From the NCBI GenBank assembly GCA_963701625.1, contig CAVPAT010000005.1, positions 3,146 through 67,145 on the forward strand: 64,000 nt of DNA. Reading direction: 5' to 3'. Source of the DNA: an uncultured Acidimicrobiia bacterium (lineage in GTDB: Bacteria > Actinomycetota > Acidimicrobiia > IMCC26256 > JAENVU01). Below, one piece after another: positions 13,734 to 46,577 of this stretch; position 1 is the stretch's first letter; each line of letters begins with the position of its first letter. The translations under genes and the position numbers were made by a program. The notes under the pieces are model-generated. The model was not told the DNA's origin. It ran no database searches and was given only the letters and a program-made list of their open reading frames with translations.

Positions 13734-13788
13734 CCGACATCGCGCCAGGCGTTGACATGTGCGTCGGGTTGCCAGGAGCATGCGAGCC

Positions 13789-15678
13789 ATGACCCACCCC
13801 CTCGCCATGCTCACGCCGGACGAGATCAGCGCGGCGAGCGCCATCGCACGGGCCGACGAGCGGTTCCCGGACCCGGCGACCTTCGTCCACGTCATCCTCG
13901 ACGAGCCGACCAAGGCCGAACTCGGCGCCGGCCCGGTCGACCGCCGCGCCGCGATCCAACTCGTCAGCGGTCCTGGCGTCGGGGTGACCGAGATCGTGGT
14001 ATCGCTCACGACGTCGACGGTGCTCAGCTGGGAGTTCGTCGCCGGCGTCCGGCCGACGCTGCTGTTCGGTGAAGCCGCCAACGCGATCTTCACCACCCGT
14101 GCCCACCCCGAGTACATCGCCGCCCTGGCACGGCGCGGCATCACCGATCCCGACAGCGTGCAGATCGACCCCTGGCCCGCGGGCGCGTTCGGGTACGACG
14201 CAGAGCAGGACCGCCGGATCGCGCGGTGCATCTCGTTCCTGCGCACCGATCCGCAGGACAACGGCTACGCCCGGCCCATCGAAGGGCTCATCGTGCACTT
14301 CGACCTCGGTCGCAACGAGGTCATCGAGGTCATCGACCACGGTCCGATCACGGTGCCCACCCAGCACGCGCGTTACTTCGCGCCGGACAACGAACCGCTC
14401 CGGACCGACCTCAAGCCGATCGCCATCACCCAGCCCGACGGTCCCAGCTTCACCGTCGACGACAACTTGGTGCGATGGCAGAAGTGGTCGGTCCGCCTCG
14501 GCTTCGACCCCTACGAAGGGCTCGTTCTGCATCAGGTCAGCTACGACGACGCCGGGCGGGAGCGGTCGATCCTGCACCGCGCGTCGATCACCGAGATGGT
14601 CGTGCCCTACGGCGCGCCCGGCGAACTCCAGGGCTGGAAGAACGCGTTCGACGTGGGCGAGTGGGGGCTCGGGCGCATGACGCAATCGCTCACGCTCGGC
14701 TGCGACTGCCTCGGCGAGATCCATTACTTCGACGCCGCCATGGCCAAGGAGGACGGCGAGCCGTACGTGGTCCGCAACGCGATCTGCATGCACGAGGAGG
14801 ACTACGGGATTCTCTGGAAGCACGTGGACCTCTTCGGCGACACGAGCGAAGTGCGCCGGAGCCGCCGCCTCGCCATCAGCAACATCGCGACGGTCGGCAA
14901 CTACGAGTACGGCTTCTTCTGGTACCTCTACCTCGACGGCAACATCCAGCTCGAAGTGAAGCTCACGGGCATCGTGTCGCCGCAGGCGATCGAGCCGGGC
15001 GACGACCCCGAGTTCGCCGGCGTGGTCGCCCCCGGCGTCGCGGCGCCGAACCACCAGCACATGTTCTCGGCCCGCCTGGACTTCGACGTCGACGGCCCGA
15101 CCAACGAGATCTGGGAAGTCGACGCCGAGACGGTGCCGGCCGGACCCGACAACCCCTGGCGCAATGCGTTTCGCGCCAAGCAGACGCGGCTCGACTCCGA
15201 GCAGGTGGCCAAGCGGGAGACGAACAGCGCGACGTCCCGGTCGTGGCGCATCGTCAATCCGCAGACTCGCAACGGCCTCGGCCAGTCCACCGCGTACAAG
15301 CTGATCCCGACGATGAGCACGCCGACCCTGCTCGCCCACCCCGACTCGAGCGTGGGCCAGCGGGCCGGGTTCGCACAGCACAACCTGTGGGTCACGCCCT
15401 ACCAACCCGACGAACGTCGGGCCGCGGGGAACTACCCGAACCAGCACGAGGGCGGCGACGGGCTCCCGCGTTGGACCGCGGCGGACCGCTCACTCGTCGA
15501 CGAGGACGTCGTCGTCTGGTACAGCTTCGGCATCACCCACTTCGTGCGGCCCGAGGACTGGCCAGTGATGCCCGTGGAGTACACGGGGTTCCTGGTCAGC
15601 CCCTACGGCTTCTTCGACCGCAACCCCGCCCTCGACGTTCCCCCGTCGGACGCGTCCCACTGCCATTCCAGCGAATAG
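13789..15678 (+). CDS. Copper-containing primary amine oxidase (topaquinone enzyme)
   Basis: ..IATVGNYEYGFFWYLYLDGNIQLEVKLTGI.. contains the NYEY TPQ precursor motif. ..HQHMFSARLDFDVDG.. and ..VVWYSFGITHFVRPEDWPVMP.. contain Cu-ligand His residues. The start at ATG 13789 lies 10 nt after AGGAG. The ORF track begins at GTG 13759. Confidence 0.9.
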   Translation: MTHPLAMLTPDEISAASAIARADERFPDPATFVHVILDEPTKAELGAGPVDRRAAIQLVSGPGVGVTEIVVSLTTSTVLSWEFVAGVRPTLLFGEAANAIFTTRAHPEYIAALARRGITDPDSVQIDPWPAGAFGYDAEQDRRIARCISFLRTDPQDNGYARPIEGLIVHFDLGRNEVIEVIDHGPITVPTQHARYFAPDNEPLRTDLKPIAITQPDGPSFTVDDNLVRWQKWSVRLGFDPYEGLVLHQVSYDDAGRERSILHRASITEMVVPYGAPGELQGWKNAFDVGEWGLGRMTQSLTLGCDCLGEIHYFDAAMAKEDGEPYVVRNAICMHEEDYGILWKHVDLFGDTSEVRRSRRLAISNIATVGNYEYGFFWYLYLDGNIQLEVKLTGIVSPQAIEPGDDPEFAGVVAPGVAAPNHQHMFSARLDFDVDGPTNEIWEVDAETVPAGPDNPWRNAFRAKQTRLDSEQVAKRETNSATSRSWRIVNPQTRNGLGQSTAYKLIPTMSTPTLLAHPDSSVGQRAGFAQHNLWVTPYQPDERRAAGNYPNQHEGGDGLPRWTAADRSLVDEDVVVWYSFGITHFVRPEDWPVMPVEYTGFLVSPYGFFDRNPALDVPPSDASHCHSSE

Positions 15679-20935: not shown

Positions 20936-21029
20936 ACGGCCCGGACTCGCATTGCACCAACCAGGAAGACCGGCCCGAGTTGCTTTCGCGGATATGGGTG
21001 CGCACCACCGGATAGGGTCGGTGGCATCA

Positions 21030-21139
21030 CACGGGAGTCCGGTGCGCCGGGCTGAGAGGAGGGCTCGGAGCCCTCGACCGTCCGAACCTGATCCGGGTCA
21101 TGCCGGCGCAGGGAGTTCTGTTCGCAGCGTTCCCGTGTC
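21030..21139 (+). promoter_or_regulatory. TPP (THI-box) riboswitch
   Basis: ..GGGCUGAGAGGAGGGCUCGGAGCCCUCGACCGUCCGAACCUGAUCCGGGUCAUGCCGGCGCAGGGAG.. contains the conserved CUGAGA and ACCUGAUCCGG.UAAUGCCGGCG.AGGGA cores. A P1-like pairing joins ACACGGGA (21030-21037) to UCCCGUGU (21132-21139). The site is immediately 5' of the GAGGAG SD of the TPK gene. Confidence 0.85.
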
Positions 21140-21159: not shown

Positions 21160-21798
21160 GTGCACGCAGTTGTGATCGCCGGGGGTGACCCACCGTCGTC
21201 CGCGCAACTCGCGGCGATTCCCGCCCGCGCCCTGCTGATCGCGGCCGACTCCGGCATCGGCGCGCTCCATCGCGCCGATCTCGTCCCGCACGCGCTGATC
21301 GGCGACCTTGACTCCGCCGACCCGGCCGACGTGGCTCGTGCCCGCGAACTCGGCGTTCGAATCGAGACCCACCCCGAGGACAAGGATGCAACGGACCTCG
21401 AGTTGGCCCTTGCGTTCGCACGTGACGAAGGCGCTGAGCGAGTGACCGTGCTCGGCCTGGGTGGCGGTCGAGTCGACCACTTCCTCGCCAACATCCTGCT
21501 CCTGGCCCATGACCAGTGGGATCGACTCATCATCGACGCGCACACCGCAGACAGCACCGTGACCGTCGTGCGCGGCACCCGAACCCTCGAGGGAGCGACC
21601 GGCGCGGTCGTGACCCTGCTCGCCCTCAACGGACCCGCCGCCGGCGTGACCACGGTCGGTCTGCGGTGGGCGCTCACCGACGCCACACTCACCCCTGCCT
21701 CCACCCGAGGGGTCAGCAACGAGATCCTGTCGGCACCGGCCAGCATCTCGGTCACCAGTGGGGTGGTCGTCGCCATCGAACCCGCAAGAGCACCGTGA
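21160..21798 (+). CDS. Thiamine pyrophosphokinase
   Basis: (GTG)HAVVIAGGDPP..LLIAADSGIGAL..PHALIGDLDS..HPEDKDATDLELAL..VTVLGLGGGRVDHFLANI... GAGGAG lies 6 nt upstream of the start. The ORF-track start at 21100 falls inside the riboswitch. Confidence 0.8.
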   Translation: MHAVVIAGGDPPSSAQLAAIPARALLIAADSGIGALHRADLVPHALIGDLDSADPADVARARELGVRIETHPEDKDATDLELALAFARDEGAERVTVLGLGGGRVDHFLANILLLAHDQWDRLIIDAHTADSTVTVVRGTRTLEGATGAVVTLLALNGPAAGVTTVGLRWALTDATLTPASTRGVSNEILSAPASISVTSGVVVAIEPARAP

Positions 21799-22850
21799 CA
21801 CCGAGCCGCCGAACCCATCGGCTCCTCGCTGCATTCAGCGTCCTCGCGTTCTTCGCACCAGCGTGTTCCACCGCCGCGGACGATCCCCGAACCGTCACCC
21901 TCGTCACGCACGATTCGTTCGCCGTCTCCAAGCCCGTGCTGCGCGCCTTCACCGAGGAGACCGGCCTGACCGTGAAGGTCGTCCAGAACGGTGACGCCGG
22001 GGCGGCGCTGAACCAGGCGATCCTGACGAAGGGTGCGCCACTGGGCGACGTGCTCTTCGGGGTCGACAACACCTTCCTCACCCGCGCGCTGGACCAGGAC
22101 CTCTTCACGAAATATCGCCCGGACGGACTTGACCAGGTCCCCGAGTCCCTGCGGCTCGACCCCACCGGCCACGCGACACCGATCGACTTCGGCGACGTGT
22201 GTGTGAACGCGGACCGCGAGTACTTCGCCGACCGGTCCGAGTCGCCCCCTCGTTCCCTCGACGACCTCGCCGACCCGAAGTACCGGGACCTTCTCGTCGT
22301 CGAGAATCCGGCGACGTCGTCCCCGGGACTCGCGTTCGTCGCGGCCACGGTGGCGAACTACGGCGACGCGTGGCTCGGCTACTGGGACCGGCTCCGAGCC
22401 AACGGCGTGCTCGTCGTCGACGGCTGGGAGACCGCGTACAACGGCGAATTCTCGGGGGCCGGCGGTGGGGACGGCACCCGCCCCCTCGTCGTCAGCTACG
22501 CCTCGAGCCCGGCCGCAGAGATGTTCTTCGCCGATCCCCCGCCCGACGTTCCACCCACCAGCAACCTGGACACAACCTGCTTCCGGCAGGTCGAGTTCGC
22601 CGGAGTCCTGCGCGGCGCATCGAACCTCGCGGGCGCGCGCAAGCTCGTGGACTTCATGTTGACGCGTCGCTTCCAGGAGGACGTGCCGCTGAATATGTTC
22701 GTGTACCCGGCGGTCGGCGATACCCCGCTGCCGCCGGTCTTCACGAAGTACGCGATGGCGCCGGCCGCGCCGTCGCAACTGTCGCCGGCAGAGATCGGTC
22801 GACACCGCGACGAGTGGATCAAGGCATGGACCGACCGCATGCTCCGCTGA
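21795..22850 (+). CDS. thiB: Thiamine ABC transporter substrate-binding lipoprotein
   Basis: The GTG at 21795 overlaps the TPK stop. The lipobox-like signal is ..LAAFSVLAFFAPAC. ..VTLVTHDSFAVSKPVLRAFTEETGLTVKVV..GAPLGDVLFGVDNTFL.. is family-1 SBP, TbpA-like. Confidence 0.75.
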   Translation: MTPSRRTHRLLAAFSVLAFFAPACSTAADDPRTVTLVTHDSFAVSKPVLRAFTEETGLTVKVVQNGDAGAALNQAILTKGAPLGDVLFGVDNTFLTRALDQDLFTKYRPDGLDQVPESLRLDPTGHATPIDFGDVCVNADREYFADRSESPPRSLDDLADPKYRDLLVVENPATSSPGLAFVAATVANYGDAWLGYWDRLRANGVLVVDGWETAYNGEFSGAGGGDGTRPLVVSYASSPAAEMFFADPPPDVPPTSNLDTTCFRQVEFAGVLRGASNLAGARKLVDFMLTRRFQEDVPLNMFVYPAVGDTPLPPVFTKYAMAPAAPSQLSPAEIGRHRDEWIKAWTDRMLR

Positions 22851-25431: not shown

Positions 25432-26313
25432 ATGAGCGAGGCTCCTCTGCGCGTCGGGCTGGCCGGTGCAGGGCCGTGGGCCGAGCATGTCCACGCGCCG
25501 CTGCTGGCCGCGGGACCCGAGACCGAACTCGTCGGCATCTGGTCACGGACAGCGGACCACGCGGCGGTTCTCGCATCGAAACACAACGTCGAGCACTTCC
25601 CGACCTACGAAGCCCTCATCGGCGAGGTCGACGCGGTCGCGCTCGCCGTGGTTCCCGCAGCCCAGCCGTCGCTCGCGGTGCAAGCGGCTGACGCCGGCAA
25701 AGCGCTGCTCCTCGAGAAACCGCTCGGACTCGACGTCGCCGCAGCCACGCGGGTCGCGGATGCAGTGGCCGCCAACGGCGTCGGTTCGGTGATGGTGCTC
25801 ACCTACCGCTTCGCCGACGTCGTCCGCGACTTCCTCACCGAGGCCGCGACCATGACTCCGCACGGGGCCCGTGCATGTTTCATTTCCGGCGCATTCCTCG
25901 GCGGAGCGTTCGCCGGCGGCTGGCGCCTCGAACTCGGCGCCATTCTCGACGTCGGACCCCACATCCTCGACCTCGTGGAGGCTGCAGCCGGGCCAGTGGT
26001 CGACGTGCGCGGCTACGGCGATCCCCAGCAATGGGTGTCGCTGCAACTCCGTCACGAGAACGACTGTGTGAGTGACGTCGTACTGTCATGCGCGAGCGCG
26101 ATCGAACCGAGCCGCACCGAGGTCGAGCTGTACTCGTCGGACCGTGCGCTCGCGGTCGATGCCCGAGCGGGCGCCCGCGCCGAATCGTTTTCCCGGTTGC
26201 GCGCCGAGTTCGTTGCGACGGCGCGATCCGGGGACCCACACCCCTGCGACGCCTCCCGCGGTCTCCAGATCCAGCGTTTGGTGGCCCGATCCCAAGCCGC
26301 AGTGTCCCGGTGA
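25432..26313 (+). CDS. Gfo/Idh/MocA family oxidoreductase
   Basis: ..LRVGLAGAGPWAEHVHAPLL..ALLLEKPLGLD.. shows a Rossmann fold plus the EKP motif. Confidence 0.75.
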   Translation: MSEAPLRVGLAGAGPWAEHVHAPLLAAGPETELVGIWSRTADHAAVLASKHNVEHFPTYEALIGEVDAVALAVVPAAQPSLAVQAADAGKALLLEKPLGLDVAAATRVADAVAANGVGSVMVLTYRFADVVRDFLTEAATMTPHGARACFISGAFLGGAFAGGWRLELGAILDVGPHILDLVEAAAGPVVDVRGYGDPQQWVSLQLRHENDCVSDVVLSCASAIEPSRTEVELYSSDRALAVDARAGARAESFSRLRAEFVATARSGDPHPCDASRGLQIQRLVARSQAAVSR

Positions 26314-41064: not shown

Positions 41065-41622
41065 CTAACCGCCGTAATTCATCCGGGTGTCCTCCATGCG
41101 GAGCACCTCAGTGGCTTCGTCCTTCAGGAAGCCGCTGTCGACGATCTCGCCGACGAAGAACGTGTGGTTGCCGGCGACGAGCCGATCCCGTACCTCGCAG
41201 TCGAGAAAGGCGACGGACTGAGCGAGAATCGGCGCGCCGGTCGCACGCTCGAGGTACGGGAACCCGTTGAGCGTGCTCGCTGCCAGGTCGACCTCGACGG
41301 GCTTCGTGAACTTTCGGACGATCGCGCGGTCCTCGCGGTCGATCAGGCACACGCTGAACACGCCACCGGCATCGATGAGCTCGTGGGTGAAGGCCTCGAC
41401 CTCGATGCCGACGCCAACCAGCTTCGGTTCGAAGCTGAGCTGCGTGACCCAGTTGGCGGTCATGCCGTTCCGGCGCTGTGCGCCGTCGGTGCTGCCCACG
41501 ACGTAGAGGCCCGACGGCATCTTCCACAACACCCGCCGACGAAGCTTGTCGTAGTCGACCTGCTGATCGTCAGTGGTCACTGCCTCGGGATAGGGGCCGA
41601 CCGGCCCGTCTTTGGTTGCCAT
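41065..41622 (-). CDS. Flavin reductase-like (split-barrel FMN-binding) protein
   Basis: ..GLYVVGSTDGAQRRNGMTANWVTQLSFEPKLVGVGI..GVFSVCLI..HTFFVGEIV.. Confidence 0.75.
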   Translation of the reverse strand: MATKDGPVGPYPEAVTTDDQQVDYDKLRRRVLWKMPSGLYVVGSTDGAQRRNGMTANWVTQLSFEPKLVGVGIEVEAFTHELIDAGGVFSVCLIDREDRAIVRKFTKPVEVDLAASTLNGFPYLERATGAPILAQSVAFLDCEVRDRLVAGNHTFFVGEIVDSGFLKDEATEVLRMEDTRMNYGG

Positions 41623-41735
41623 GGGTGCAGGCTACGAGGCAGACCGTGAGCAGCCGGCGCGAGAAGATGCAACGCTGCGCGAGGAGCCGAGACGGCAGAG
41701 GAGCCGTGCCGGTACGTCAGACCGAGGAGGACACG

Positions 41736-43350
41736 ATGGACCGGGTCAAGATCGCCAGGTGGAGCGAGATCCCGGATCGGGAACCGATCGGCGTCACCGT
41801 CGACGGCATCGACTTGGTCATCATCCGCCAGGACGACGCGGCCTCTGTCCTCTACGGCCGATGTCTGCACCGCGGCGCACTGCTGGCGGACGGAACCATC
41901 GTCGACGACGACCTCATCTGCGGGCTCCACGGCTGGGACTACCGAATCGAGTCGGGGGTCAGCGCCTACAACAACGCCGAGGCGCTCGAGAAGTTCACGA
42001 GCGTCGTCGAGGACGACACACTCTTCGTCGACCAGACCGAGGTCCTTCGCTTCGCGATGAAGCACCCACAGCCTTTCGACGCGGACGTGTATCAGGGTTA
42101 CTACCAGGACCCGCACATGGTCCCGGAGGAGCCGTTCGTCGCGTACATCCACGAGCTCGCAGCGAACGGGCTCACCAAGACCGGCCATCACGGGCCGCTC
42201 GGCGCGATGGGCGTACCGCGCGACGAGCTCCCCAAGTGGGACTCGATCCAGTTCGTCACCGCGCAGCTCGCGCGGCTGCCGAAGCTCGACGATCAGGAAA
42301 TCGGCACCGAAGTGTGCATCGGTCCGAACGCTGACAAACCGCTGTGGCTGGACATCCCACTGTTCGTTTCGGACATGAGCTTCGGTGCGCTCTCCGAGGA
42401 GGCCAAGACCGCACTCGCCCGCGGCGCCGAACTCGCCGGCACCGGCATCTGCTCCGGTGAAGGCGGAATGCTGCCCGAGGAGCAGGCCGAGAACAGTCGC
42501 TACTTCTACGAACTCGCGTCCGCGCGCTTCGGCTGGAGCTTCGACGTGCTCAAGAAGGTGCAGGCCTTCCACTTCAAGGGTGGCCAGGGAGCAAAGACGG
42601 GGACCGGTGGTCATCTTCCCGGCGACAAGGTCATCGGCAAAATCGCACAGGTCCGAGGCCTGCCCGAAGGCACCGCGGCAATCTCGCCGCCACGGTTCCC
42701 GGACTGGGATTCGCTCGACGACTACAAGCGCTTCGCCGGGCAGGTCCGGGAGCAGTCGGGTGGCATCCCGGTCGGGTTCAAGCTGTCCGCGCAGCACATC
42801 GAGGAGGACCTCGACGCCGCATTGGCCGTCGGGGTCGACTACGTGATCCTCGACGGGCGCGGGGGCGGAACCGGCGCCGCGCCGCTGCTGTTCCGGGACA
42901 ACATCTCTGTGCCGACGATCCCGGCATTGGCCCGGGCCCGAGCCCACCTCGATCGTCGCGGGCGGCGCGACATCACGCTCGTGATCACCGGCGGACTCCG
43001 GCACGCCCCGGATTTCGCCAAGGCCCTCGCCCTCGGCGCGGATGCCGTCGCGGTGGCGAACTCGGCCATTCAGGCGATCGGGTGTCTCGGCATGCGGGCC
43101 TGCAACACCAACAACTGTCCCGTCGGCATCGCGACCCAGCAGCCTCACCTCCGGGCCCGGCTGCCGGTCGAGGAGGCCGCGCACCGCTTGGACCGGTTCT
43201 TCCGGGCGACGGTGGAACTCATGCAGGTCCTCGCCCGAGCGTGCGGTCACACGCACCTGCGCGAGTTCACCGCCGACGACCTCACGACGTTCGACCGGGA
43301 GATGGCCCATCTCACCGGGGATCGCCTACGGAGGAGTGATGGCACCGTGA
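41736..43350 (+). CDS. Rieske [2Fe-2S] domain fused to an FMN-binding glutamate-synthase-domain-2-like protein; one +1 insertion near 43318 makes the sequence as given read through into the next gene
   Basis: The ATG at 41736 follows GAGGAGG. The Rieske motif is CLHRG..17 aa..CGLHGW. The GltS-like part reads ..IPLFVSDMSFGALSEEAKTALARGAELAGTGICSGEGGM..KGGQGAKTGTGGHLPG..ILDGRGGGTGAAP..ITGGLR..CNTNNCPVGIATQ... Dropping one G of CCGGGG restores LTGIAYGGVMAP-TGA (stop at 43348-43350). Confidence 0.75.
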
Positions 43351-45295
43351 CCGAGGATCTCGTCTTCTCCAAGGTGGCCGAACTCGACGACCTCCCCGAC
43401 GGTCGCGTGCGGACCGTGCTGGCCGGGCGACGATCGATCGCGCTGACCCGGGTCGGCGACCGGTACGGCGCCCTGGACAACCACTGTCCGCATCAGGGCG
43501 GGCCGCTCGGCGAGGGTTCGATCGAGAAGGGGCTCCTCCGCTGTCCGTGGCACGGCTACGACTACGACCCGCTCACCGGCCAGCCGCCCGCCGGCTTCTC
43601 CGACGCGCCGAGCTGTTTCGCGGTCGAGATCCGCGACGACGGCGTCTACGTCGGACTCCCGGCCGAGTCCGAGCACGAACGGACCGTCTCGGACGTCATG
43701 GTCGAGACCATGGTCGCGTGGGGCGTCACGCATGTCTTCGGCATGGTCGGCCACTCCAACCTCGGCTTCGCCGATGCCATGCGGCGCGCCGAGGAGCGCG
43801 GCGAACTCACCTTCGTCGGGATTCGTCACGAAGGTGCCGGCGCATTCGCCGCCTCGGCCTACGGCAAGCTCACCGGCCGTCCCGCGGCCTGTTTCGCGAT
43901 CGCCGGGCCCGGCTCGACCAATCTGCTCACCGGTCTCTACGACGCCAAGGCGGACCGCGCACCGGTCCTCGCGATCTCAGGTCAGGTTCCGTCCACGGTG
44001 CTGGGCCGGGGTGCGTTTCAGGACGTCGACCTCAACGCCGCCTTCGCAAGCCGTGGCGGCCTACTCCAAGACCGTGCTCCCCGAGTCCGATCACGCCGAG
44101 CTGATGACGCTGGCGCTGAAGCACGGCGACCGTCCAACGCGACGTCGCCCACCTCGTGTTGCCCGACGAGGTCCAGGTCCGCGTCGTGGACGAGGAGTCG
44201 AAACCGTCATCGCCGACCGGCCGCCTCGGCGACGACCGCATCGCGCCACCAGCCGAAGCACTCACGGCCGCAATCGCTGCGATCGATGCTGCGAACCGGC
44301 CCGTCATCGTCGTCGGCCACGGCGTCCGCTTCGACATGGACTCGGTCCGAGAGCTGGCCGAGACCCTCGGCGCTCCGGTGCTCACCACGTTCAAGGCCAA
44401 GGGCCTGATCTCGGACCATCACCCGCTCGGCGCCGGAGTGCTCGGCCGCAGCGGGACCCCGGTGGCGAGCTGGCTGATGAACGAGTCGGACCTGCTCATC
44501 GTGATCGGCGCATCGTTCTCGAACCACACCGGGATCGCGCCGTACAAGCCGATCGTGCAGGTCGACTTCGACCCCATGGCGCTCGGACGCTTCCACCCGG
44601 TCACGGTCCCGGTGCAGGGCCACGCGGGGGTGACCGCGCGTCTCATTTCCGAACGGCTCAAATCTCGCAACGATCGGGCGGACCAACGGACCGACGTCGC
44701 CGCGCGCTGGAAGATCTGGCGATCCGAGAAGGCTCGGCGGCTCGATGACGACCGTCGGCGCGGGGTCTCGTCGGCCGCGATCTTCGACAGCCTGAACCGC
44801 CACGCGCCCGAGGACGCCGTCATCACCGTCGACGTCGGGAACCATGCGTACTCCTTCGGCCGGTACTTCGAATGTGAGCGCCAGTCCATTCTGATGTCCG
44901 GGTACCTCGGATCCATCGGCTTCGGGTTCCCGGCGGCGATGGGCGCGTGGGCCGCGGTCGGCGACACCCGGAAGATCATCGCGGTCACCGGAGACGGAGG
45001 CTTCGGCCAGTACCTCGCCGACCTGACCACGGCGGTGAAGTACGGCATGCCGATCGCCCACGTGCTGCTCGACAACTCGTCGCTCGGCAAGATCACCAAA
45101 GAGCAGCAGGCCGCCGAGTACGACGTGTGGCACACGGACCTCCTCAACCCGGACTTCGCGGCCTACGCAGAGCTGTGCGGCGCGCTGGGGATCAAGGTGG
45201 AGTCACGCGACGAACTCGACGAGGCCCTGGCCCGAGCCGTCAATCACGCGGGTCCAGCCGTGGTGGCGATCCACACCGACCCTGAGCTCGTCTGA
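43347..45295 (+). CDS. Rieske [2Fe-2S] domain fused to a ThDP-dependent enzyme (pyruvate oxidase/acetolactate synthase superfamily); two frameshifts (~44045, ~44125)
   Basis: The GTG at 43347 (GTGA overlap) follows GGAGGA. The Rieske motif is CPHQGGPL..CPWHGYDY. The PYR domain reads ..VMVETMVAWGVTHVFGMVGHSNLGF..IRHEGAGAFAASAYGKLTG..AGPGSTNLLTGLYDA. The middle part is AAYSKTVLPESDHAELMTL then VQRDVAHLVLPDEVQ. The PP domain in ORF 44156..45295 has GYLGSIGFGFPAAMGA..AVTGDGGFGQY. Confidence 0.75.
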
Positions 45296-45401: not shown

Positions 45402-46577
45402 TCAGTTCAGACGGTGTTGGCTCACCGGCAGGACGTAGAACCAGAACGGCTGGGGTGCCTCCGCGTCCTTCATGGCCTGCTGCGCCTGGTGCAGCATCTT
45501 GCCGGCCGCGGTCTGCTGGGCGAACCAGGTTTCGGCCGAGCGGGCGGCAGGGACGTGCTCGGAGAGTCCGGCCGCGGCCTGCTCGTAGTAGCCGCGGATC
45601 GCGAGACCAGAGGTCACCGGGTTGTCAGGGATCTCGGCCTCCGCCCACGGCGTGCCGTCGGCCACGCGGGAGAAGGCGAACAGGGCAGCCTCGACGACGT
45701 CCGGGTCCACCGCCGCGCGGATGCCGCCGGCGGCGCGGTCAAACGCCTGGCGCAGTCCCCGCATCTCGTCGACCGCCGGCGGGAGCGACGGGTCGAGCCG
45801 GGCCGGCATCGGACACGCAAGTGGGACGTCGACCTCGTCGGTAATCGTCTCGGGATACGTCGCGAGCGTCGGCTCGGTCGCGTCGAGCAACGAAAACGCC
45901 TCGCGCAACACCGCGTGCTGGAAGTCGGGATCACCGGGTCGGCCCAGTGGACGACCGAGCGGGAACTCGCAATAGAGGCCGCGGGGAACGGGCATCCGTT
46001 CAGCGACCTCGTGCATCGAGATGAGCGCGACCGTCGCGATCCCGGCCGCTTCCAGGGTGTACGCGAGCGCACCGACCGTGCGCGTGCACAGCGGTCAGAC
46101 GGGCGTGAGCAGGACGACATCGGTGCCCTGCTCCTTGAGCAGATGCGCAGCTTGGGGCCCGGTGTCCTGGAGAATCGTCGCGAGGTCGAACTGGGCGCCC
46201 ATGAACGACACGTGGTTGGGCGCGACCGATCCGATCGTCCCGTCGGCCGCCAACTCGTCGAGGCGGTCGACGGGGAACACGACATTGCGGTCGAGCATCA
46301 TGCCGCTGCGGTCGAGGTTTTGGCTGTTGTGACTGATCGTCACGTCATCGTGGCCGTGCGGGATCACCCGGAAGCCGGGATCCCCCATCCCGAAGCTCTC
46401 CTCGTCGGTGAGGTGCAACCCCGCCGTGGTGACGATCGCGACTGAGGCGTCAGCGAGCCTGGGCGCCGTCGTGAAGGGATGGTCGGTCAGGTCCGGGACC
46501 GCCAGAGTCGCCATCACCGCCCGCATATCACTGTCGGCACCCACCGGTCTGCTCCCCTTGGCTGCTTGCCTGACCAT
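45402..46577 (-). CDS. GrdB/PrdB-family (reductase selenoprotein B-like) protein with an in-frame TGA at 46095-46097; putative selenocysteine codon
   Basis: ORFs 46095..46577 and 45402..46016 are in the same frame, separated by TGA plus 26 open codons. The join reads ..QGTDVVLLTPV-U-PLCTRTVGALAYTLEAAGIATVALISMHEV... This has the same layout as my recollection of GrdB (..LTSTUGTCTRCGA..E.AGI..). No start or RBS for an independent downstream gene occurs before codon 27. Confidence 0.65.
46067..46083 (-). promoter_or_regulatory. Candidate bacterial SECIS minihelix
   Basis: The mRNA reads UGA-CCGCUGUGCAC (11 nt)-GCGCAC-GGUCG-GUGCGC. This is a perfect 6-bp stem with a GGUCG apical loop, starting 11 nt after the UGA. 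It resembles the fdhF minihelix GGUUGCAGGUCUGCACC, which also sits 11 nt after its UGA (from memory). Confidence 0.5.

Follow-up and report, generated by a model that had tools for sequence, protein, structure and literature searches.

The interrupted reading frame and its hairpin

The window analysed here is a stretch of 64,000 nucleotides (64 kb) from an uncultured Acidimicrobiia bacterium (contig CAVPAT010000005.1 of assembly GCA_963701625.1), and its minus strand carries a gene related to PrdB, the selenoprotein subunit of D-proline reductase, that is interrupted by an in-frame TGA codon. An initial annotation, made from the sequence alone, had noticed that two separately called open reading frames (ORFs), 46095..46577 and 45402..46016 (minus strand), share one frame and are split by the TGA at 46097-46095, and had read this TGA as a selenocysteine (Sec) codon in a gene of the GrdB/PrdB superfamily. 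Translation reproduced this layout: the minus-strand frame 46577..45402 holds 391 sense codons counted from ATG 46577, and the TGA is its single interruption and the sole stop within 392 codons. The read-through product around the TGA is ..GTDVVLLTPV-*-PLCTRTVGALAYTLEAAGIATV.., and the read-through coding sequence (45402..46577, minus strand; ATG at 46577, stop at 45404-45402) has homologues of 380-420 aa that align across the TGA. Third-position GC amounts to 0.86-0.87 in this frame, upstream and downstream of the TGA alike. Otherwise TGA serves as an ordinary stop in this DNA: of 37 coding-like stop-to-stop ORFs listed for the window, 29 terminate with it.

The GTG at 46544 is more likely to be the start codon than ATG 46577, since the N-termini of homologues (P0001, the closest full-length database homologue, and others) align at V12. 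The predicted ribosome-binding site and start occupy 46542..46559 (minus strand) and, as read from the sequence, consist of AAGGGGAG at 46559-46552, a 7-nt spacer and GTG 46544-46542. The protein would then have 380 aa. The Sec codon UGA (46095..46097, minus strand) corresponds to residue 161 counted from the ATG and to residue 150 counted from the GTG; residue numbers below are those of the ATG form.

A search of 5.8 billion proteins returned about 60 full-length homologues (380-420 aa) together with a similar number of fragments of 220-240 aa that start just past the TGA site, several of these at 'MCTR...'. Many fragments in a 50%-identity representative library end at profile position 150 or begin at 158-161, which indicates that the family is routinely split at the Sec codon. 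Taken as a whole, the comparison of reading frames strongly supports the prediction that the two ORF calls of the window represent one selenoprotein gene of about 380 aa. Homologues that are normally encoded as two separate genes had been named as an observation that would count against a selenoprotein, and what was found instead are the full-length homologues of 380-420 aa that run across the site.

Downstream of the UGA lies the hairpin that had been proposed as a selenocysteine insertion sequence (SECIS). The core of this candidate SECIS (46067..46083, minus strand) is present as described, with a perfect 6-bp stem GCGCAC/GUGCGC and the loop GGUCG, separated from the UGA by an 11-nt spacer (CCGCUGUGCAC). 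It can be extended to 46063..46087 (minus strand) by two outer pairs, G46087-C46063 and C46086-G46064, which are followed by a 2x2 internal loop before the core. The corresponding outer pairs of the RNAalifold consensus are G-C at 20-44 in 66 of 67 sequences, and C-G in 53 and U-G in 9 sequences at 21-43. The hairpin energy is -11.6 kcal/mol, or -13.4 kcal/mol when the outer pairs are included. The two strands of the window contain 1400 TGA triplets. Seven of them have a perfect 6-bp stem with a 5-nt loop at +11, and the TGA at 46097-46095 is the only one of these seven with G-U at loop positions 2-3. The bacterial SECIS (bSECIS) model allows loops of 3-9 nt, stems of 4-16 bp, a G in the first two loop positions, a UGA-to-loop spacing of 16-37 nt and an energy of <= -7.5 kcal/mol (PMC13188914). 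With a loop of 5 nt that begins with two Gs, a stem of 6 bp, a spacing of 17 nt and -11.6 kcal/mol, the window hairpin lies within every one of these limits.

Conservation of the TGA codon and covariation of the stem

To place the TGA within the superfamily, genuine prdB genes were fetched from clostridial plasmids, including pTG1 of Terrisporobacter glycolicus, in which prdC, prdA and prdB form an operon and a small ORF sits between the last two, at the place of prdH in C. difficile; PrdB of P. acidaminophilum was aligned as well. In the MAFFT alignment the window TGA falls exactly on U151 of the T. glycolicus and P. acidaminophilum proteins, with the Cys at +3 and the Arg at +5 conserved, so that the assignment of the UGA to the conserved Cys/Sec column of a U-x-x-C-x-R motif is borne out on genuine PrdB. 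In C. difficile PrdB this residue, Sec151, is catalytic and essential, and a U151C variant is inactive (PMC11229817); the corresponding residue of C. sticklandii PrdB is Sec152 (PMC3091704). The Cys164 codon of the U-x-x-C motif (46086..46088, minus strand) is invariant in the family alignments and kept in genuine PrdB, and Cys164 is proposed, by analogy, as the resolving cysteine.

A genome scan with one genome per species found a relative in at least 542 species genomes, the best 80 of which were examined in detail. Most of these 80 are Acidimicrobiia metagenome-assembled genomes (MAGs), and some belong to Gammaproteobacteria, Acidobacteriota, Binatia, Myxococcota and Chloroflexota. Identity is highest, at 83-84%, to Acidimicrobiia MAGs, in line with the actinobacterial-type host deduced initially. 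All 80 best species genomes carry TGA at this codon, and counting the extra loci and the window itself the tally is 85 of 85. The earlier expectation that most homologues outside clostridia have Cys at this place therefore did not hold for the best genome matches, which stem from several phyla. In 51 full-length database homologues the Sec/Cys column is occupied by Cys (38), Gly (10), Ser (2) and Ala (1), and the Cys codons TGC and TGT were confirmed at the DNA level.

The hairpin is kept 11 nt from the TGA in the relatives, with a stem sequence that varies in a compensatory fashion. The stem-loops were tallied over 81 distinct sequences, and the statistics on pairing and covariation were obtained on 67 of them. 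By far the most frequent type is GCGUAC-CGUGA-GUACGC (45 of 81), followed by GCGCAC...GUGUGC with all its loop variants (12 of 81), the window type GCGCAC-GGUCG-GUGCGC (6 of 81), GCGUGU...GCACGC with all loop variants (3 of 81) and UCGUAC...GUACGA (2 of 81). The consensus loop of the family is CGUGA, and the GGUCG of the window belongs to a minority, 9 of 81 when GGUCU variants are counted; throughout the family, loop positions 2-3 are G-U without exception.

In the 67 sequences 99.8% of the cells are paired, and double compensatory changes occur at three of the six pairs, in 26 cells. The exchanged pair types include U-A in 46 and C-G in 21 sequences, A-U in 64 and G-C in 3, and G-C in 64 and U-A in 2. 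None of 500 shuffles matched the observed percentage paired, the number of double-change cells or the covariation score; controls with slid partners gave 5-70% pairing, and RNAalifold independently recovered the same 6-bp helix. The third position of the Arg codon (CGU/CGC) covaries perfectly with the first position of the codon six codons downstream, CGU pairing with ACG (Thr) and CGC with GCG (Ala) or GUG (Val). A synonymous Arg position that covaries with a nonsynonymous site implies that a constraint at the RNA level overrides the freedom at the protein level. Conservation and covariation across the relatives, together with the agreement with the bSECIS model, thus speak for the minihelix as a SECIS, as had been suggested.

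Loci that do not have TGA at this codon have lost much of the stem. Three Cys forms (codons TGC, TGC and TGT) retain 3, 2 and 4 of the 6 stem pairs, respectively, a Gly form (GGG) retains 4 of 6 and an Ala form (GCT) 3 of 6. At the level of sequence comparison, this decay of the stem in the non-TGA forms is the decisive control for a role of the hairpin as SECIS. P0001 (locus L085), which is 72% identical to the window protein, has TCA (Ser) at the Sec codon and a perfect SECIS stem. Since the contig has a coverage of 1.7x and the stem is intact, the TCA is probably a misread TGA, or else a very recent change.

A sub-clade of database homologues (P0008, P0010, P0011, P0016, P0021, P0029, P0039, P0042, P0045, P0046 and P0050) has Gly or Ala at the Sec column and no hairpin. 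Where the loci have been sequenced, the codons are genuine (GGG at position 3447 of L091, GCT at position 3447 of L092). A mistranslated TGA, as in genetic code 25, was considered as the origin of the Gly and is excluded by the GGG codon. P0008 and P0042 carry an extra Cys at +8 (G/A-P-M-C-x-R-T-V-C). Judging from these sequences, the sub-clade may use an alternative C(+3)/C(+8) pair, or may have a non-redox role.

The encoded protein consists of two parts. The PrdB/GrdB-homologous domain (45882..46463, minus strand; residues 39-232) matches the NCBIfam model TIGR04483 (PrdB) with E = 2e-36 over profile positions 25-219 of 238, and since this match spans residues 39-232, the homology runs across the TGA. 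The score of 125.6 bits is below the PrdB equivalog cut-off of 300. The GrdF, GrdH and GrdB models gave weaker matches, from E = 3e-11 (GrdF) to 2e-6; Pfam GRDB (PF07355) scored 19.5 against a cut-off of 22 and TIGR01918 scored 30.2 against 65.45. Annotated prdB genes were matched by tblastn with E = 2e-21. By these profile comparisons the predicted protein is a relative of the GrdB/PrdB superfamily that falls short of model-defined membership, and the superfamily assignment of the gene as a Sec-decoding one is borne out by the PrdB homology taken with the conserved TGA and the SECIS.

The second part is a C-terminal extension of about 160 residues (45405..45881, minus strand; residues 233-391), which is family-specific, mostly helical and located beyond the end of genuine PrdB. 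It contains an invariant Cys255 and an invariant Trp351 in the family alignment and has no match in Pfam or NCBIfam. An AlphaFold2 model of the closest full-length relative shows one compact fold (mean predicted local distance difference test score, pLDDT, 94.5; predicted template modelling score, pTM, 0.93). A Foldseek comparison of this model with the PDB gave no significant match (best E = 0.017, template modelling score, TM, < 0.35), and a sequence search of the PDB with the protein gave no match.

Two further database sequences touch on this architecture. P0256, a representative of 1019 aa without Pfam domains, matches the C-terminal domain alone and may be an artefactual ORF. The short-form relative P0211 matches Pfam GRDB and, weakly, PF24696 ('UGSC family'). 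In view of this dual match, the 'UGSC-containing' selenoproteins that abound in the sea may be distantly related to the GrdB/PrdB core, for which the U-G-T-C of true PrdB may be compared.

Partner genes, interpretation and competing explanations

Genuine reductases of this type work with further subunits, and these were searched for around the gene. PrdA, PrdC and the small ORF between prdA and prdB (taken as PrdH), all from T. glycolicus, gave 0 tblastn matches in the window and 90 related loci, 691 kb in total, and a PrdB query in the same 691 kb matched 91 of 91 loci. Pfam scans of the window and of the related flanks detected no PrdA, GrdA or GrdE-type gene among the neighbours, so that the initial statement that the window holds no such partner stands. 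Clustering of the flank ORFs of 83 loci revealed no widespread conserved neighbour; the two largest clusters were rejected as partners, being antisense shadow ORFs of the selenoprotein gene itself. Genes for luciferase-like monooxygenases, Amidohydro_2 proteins and glyoxalases turn up more than once in the neighbourhoods, as an anecdotal observation.

On one side of the gene lies a convergent gene of Rieske, GltS-like and thiamine pyrophosphate (TPP)-enzyme type, and on the other side a divergent ORF without assignment, a GNAT acetyltransferase gene and an acetyl-CoA hydrolase/transferase gene. Most of this arrangement is kept on a syntenic 3.8-Mb Acidimicrobiia contig, where the divergent upstream gene encodes a MerR-family regulator. 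The convergent fusion gene (41478-45295, plus strand) has the order Rieske / GltS-FMN / Rieske / TPP-enzyme. Within 44040-44160 (plus strand) it shows two apparent frame changes in about 100 nt, from frame 0 to 1 near 44046-44050 and from 1 to 2 near 44125-44145, which separate TPP_enzyme_N from TPP_enzyme_M and TPP_enzyme_C. These changes reflect either a pseudogene or assembly indel errors; the same fusion gene is also fragmented in the syntenic relative L001.

We propose that the gene encodes one Sec-decoded, long-form, stand-alone PrdB-like selenoprotein, and assign to this explanation as a whole a probability of roughly 0.87. It builds on the following observations: the ORFs form a single gene, its UGA falls in the Sec/Cys column, the SECIS is conserved and covaries, the protein is homologous to PrdB, and partner genes are missing nearby. 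The UGA at 46097-46095 would be decoded as selenocysteine during translation, and the mRNA hairpin 11 nt downstream would act as a bacterial SECIS for SelB-GTP-Sec-tRNA(Sec), which would deliver Sec to the ribosome. This selenoprotein and SECIS part of the interpretation appears highly likely on the comparative evidence. The protein would represent a long-form 'PrdB-like' branch of the GrdB/PrdB superfamily, in which an N-terminal alpha/beta domain, homologous to the entire length of the 26-kDa selenoprotein subunit of D-proline reductase, precedes a helical domain of some 160 residues.

By analogy with PrdB and GrdB, the selenolate of Sec161 may serve as nucleophile, Cys164 may resolve the intermediate into a selenenyl-sulfide, and a cellular dithiol reductant such as thioredoxin may re-reduce the latter. 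We infer, rather than observe, that Sec is inserted, and the same holds for the substrate, the reductant and the chemistry of catalysis. Because no PrdA, PrdC or PrdH was found nearby, in the window or in the 90 related loci, the protein is most likely a stand-alone enzyme and not a classical proline reductase subunit.

Several observations weigh against this proposal. The first concerns the hairpin: folding of 46040-46100, which had been suggested as a check, gave no signal for it, the 61-nt stretch folded alone reaching z = 0.43 relative to shuffled sequences. In this GC-rich segment the lowest energy belongs to a competing structure, which is more stable than the hairpin. The support for the putative SECIS is comparative, not thermodynamic. 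There was also no match to a SECIS family of Rfam at the gathering or at a permissive threshold, a result of little weight because Rfam covers bacterial SECIS elements poorly. The frameshifts in the neighbouring TPP-enzyme gene imply that the assembly has indel errors; the TGA, being common to 85 independent assemblies, cannot be such an error.

Further, no selA, selB, selD or tRNA-Sec was detected, either in the 64 kb of the window or in the flanks fetched from relatives (ARAGORN on the window, Pfam scans of 20 window ORFs, and a search for tRNA-Sec in 33 related loci). The preservation of the TGA and of a covarying SECIS in 80 species would be hard to explain without Sec machinery, and the soil-type Acidimicrobiia lineage of the host almost certainly decodes UGA as Sec. 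Sec machinery has been reported across the Actinomarinales, another order of the Acidimicrobiia (bioRxiv 10.64898/2026.04.03.716425). Some relatives naturally have Gly or Ala in the Sec column and work, or persist, without Sec or Cys there, which weakens a purely redox view of the family. Finally, the stand-alone status and the mechanism are deduced, and another part of the genome could hold the gene of a PrdA-like partner.

The last point leads to the competing explanation that survives best, namely that the protein is a genuine PrdB subunit of a D-proline reductase (or of a reductase of the glycine/betaine/sarcosine type) whose pyruvoyl partner and electron-transfer proteins are encoded elsewhere. 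The homology over the whole length of PrdB with the same U-x-x-C-x-R motif is consistent with this, and both the Joint Genome Institute (JGI) and the selenoproteome papers use the PrdB label for the family. We nevertheless regard it as improbable in view of the TIGR04483 score far below the cut-off, the extra domain of 160 aa and the absence of PrdA, PrdC and PrdH from the window and the 90 related loci. A conserved neighbour is lacking altogether, whereas pTG1 of T. glycolicus clusters prdC, prdA and prdB. Moreover, the hosts of the family are mostly aerobic Acidimicrobiia and marine Gammaproteobacteria, not Stickland fermenters.

Distinctly less probable is that the UGA is read by a near-cognate tRNA (Trp, Cys or Arg) in a weak UGA-C context, with the hairpin merely stimulating read-through. 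The base after the UGA is indeed an invariant C, UGA-C is a leaky termination context in E. coli, and the window itself yielded no sel gene or tRNA-Sec. The invariant C, however, follows also from an invariant Pro codon; the position and size of the hairpin and its loop G-U are those of SelB-binding SECIS elements, the codon stands at the proven Sec position of PrdB, and the Sec machinery of the related order argues in the same direction.

Even less credit can be given to two separate genes, an N-terminal protein of 160 aa ending at the TGA and a protein of 204-230 aa initiated downstream, which is how present-day gene callers treat the locus. The many split database calls, including 'MCTR...' starts right behind the TGA, would fit such an arrangement, but the split falls inside a single domain that is homologous to one-piece PrdB and to one-piece Cys homologues, and the full-length relative is modelled as one compact fold (mean pLDDT 94.5). 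In addition, relatives differ in their downstream starts, which are M, V or L and fall on different codons, and the first ATG of the window lies 26 codons past the TGA, with conserved coding sequence between.

A nonsense mutation or assembly error, which would make the gene a pseudogene or the TGA a mis-sequenced Cys or other codon, could draw on the indel-type frameshifts in the neighbouring gene of the same assembly and on the TCA of the close relative P0001/L085, but is effectively refuted by the sequence comparison, in which TGA recurs in every one of 85 independent sequences, drawn from many assemblies and phyla, the downstream sequence is under protein-level conservation, the covarying hairpin is specific to TGA forms, and it is the TCA (contig coverage 1.7x, perfect stem) that is likely to be an error or a very recent change.

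If the proposal of a stand-alone, Sec-decoded protein is correct, a PrdB-like catalytic domain is joined to a helical domain of about 160 aa without relatives in Pfam, NCBIfam or the PDB. The enzyme would act without a pyruvoyl partner, and the family would be systematically mis-annotated, either split at the UGA or named PrdB. With respect to annotation, 45402..46016 and 46095..46577 are to be merged into one selenoprotein gene, and hundreds of database entries that are split in this way call for the same correction.

Other features of the window are mentioned for completeness. A TPP riboswitch at 21021-21131 (plus strand; Rfam RF00059, 63.1 bits) precedes the gene of a solute-binding protein (21516-22850) and long plus-strand ORFs, and the region is probably a thiamine ATP-binding cassette (ABC) transporter operon. 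The only other TGA of the 64-kb window with coding-like composition on both sides, at 25543-25545 (minus strand), lies beneath one of these long plus-strand ORFs, downstream of the riboswitch and the solute-binding-protein gene. It was judged to belong to a shadow ORF under what is presumed to be an ABC-transporter gene and was rejected as a selenoprotein candidate. A copper amine oxidase gene (13759-15678, plus strand; Pfam E = 8e-156) is accompanied by several luciferase-like monooxygenase, acyl-CoA dehydrogenase, CoA-transferase and class-III aminotransferase genes; these surroundings point to a catabolic neighbourhood typical of soil Acidimicrobiia.

Comparison with known selenoproteins and SECIS elements

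Members of this family have been catalogued before. In the Sargasso Sea's selenoproteome, 'Proline reductase PrdB' ranked third in abundance among the selenoprotein families, with 42 genes (Zhang, Fomenko & Gladyshev 2005, PMC1088965), and the Global Ocean Sampling (GOS) selenoproteome listed 235 Sec and 110 Cys forms under pfam07355 with the motif UxxC (Zhang & Gladyshev 2008, PMC2398784). 'Proline reductase' selenoproteins were listed also in Anaeromyxobacter and Geobacter, which are not Stickland organisms (PMC1794560). A member from the 2005 supplement, AACY01584242, reads VVLLTPVuPLCTRTVGTLASVLE...FPLGRPLGKPGD...PLSCAIPP... (PMC1088965); it shares 48% identity with the window protein across 170 aa (E = 4e-49), in an alignment that reaches into the C-terminal domain.

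The Sargasso/GOS 'PrdB' family is thus the same family, with the same VVLLTPV-U-PLCTRTVG motif and the same UxxC as the window protein, and since it was catalogued in 2005 and 2008, the window gene adds a member to a known selenoprotein family. What differs is the origin, the window copy coming from a soil-type Acidimicrobiia genome of about 69% GC and the Sargasso/GOS members from surface-ocean reads. The 2005 and 2008 papers treat the family as PrdB and do not set the long form apart, and PrdA is never mentioned in the GOS paper (PMC2398784). In the literature searched, the long partner-less form is not distinguished from true PrdB. The initial annotation had called a selenoprotein of this kind unusual and not characterised; the second part of that statement stands, as the searched literature contains no biochemically characterised member of the family, and the first does not, in view of the Sargasso Sea and GOS sets.

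With relatives in at least 542 species genomes the family is widespread, and it continues to bear the name 'proline reductase' despite the absence of the partners that define this enzyme. We lean towards the view that the 'PrdB' selenoproteins of the largely aerobic lineages of ocean and soil form a separate family of stand-alone selenoenzymes and are not proline reductase subunits. The central question, which predates this window, is then the role of a stand-alone PrdB-like selenoenzyme.

With regard to the RNA element, the minimal SECIS of E. coli fdhF was reportedly defined, in work of Liu and colleagues from 1998, as a 17-nt minihelix located 11 nt from the UGA. The window element has the 11-nt spacer and the 17-nt stem-loop in common with the fdhF SECIS; its stem sequence differs, and the bulged U of fdhF is absent from it.

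Among characterised enzymes, GrdB, GrdF and GrdH share with the window protein the superfamily core around the Sec motif, over a match of about 130 residues only. Unlike the window protein, GrdB has about 435 aa, an extra N-terminal region and a UxxCxxC motif (PMC13188914). GrdB, GrdF and GrdH work with GrdA, GrdE and GrdC, none of which was found near the window gene. The closest counterpart is PrdB of the clostridial D-proline reductase, to which the window protein is homologous over the entire PrdB length at about 35% identity, with Sec in the same column and with the Cys at +3 and the Arg at +5 in common. Clostridial PrdB comprises about 240 aa, compared with 380-391 in the window protein, and ends before the roughly 160 additional C-terminal residues. 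The motif FPLGRPLGRP of the window protein stands against VPMGANAGEP in clostridial PrdB, and the SECIS sequences of the two genes differ. The selenolate/selenenyl-sulfide chemistry, by contrast, is presumably common to both (PMC3091704).

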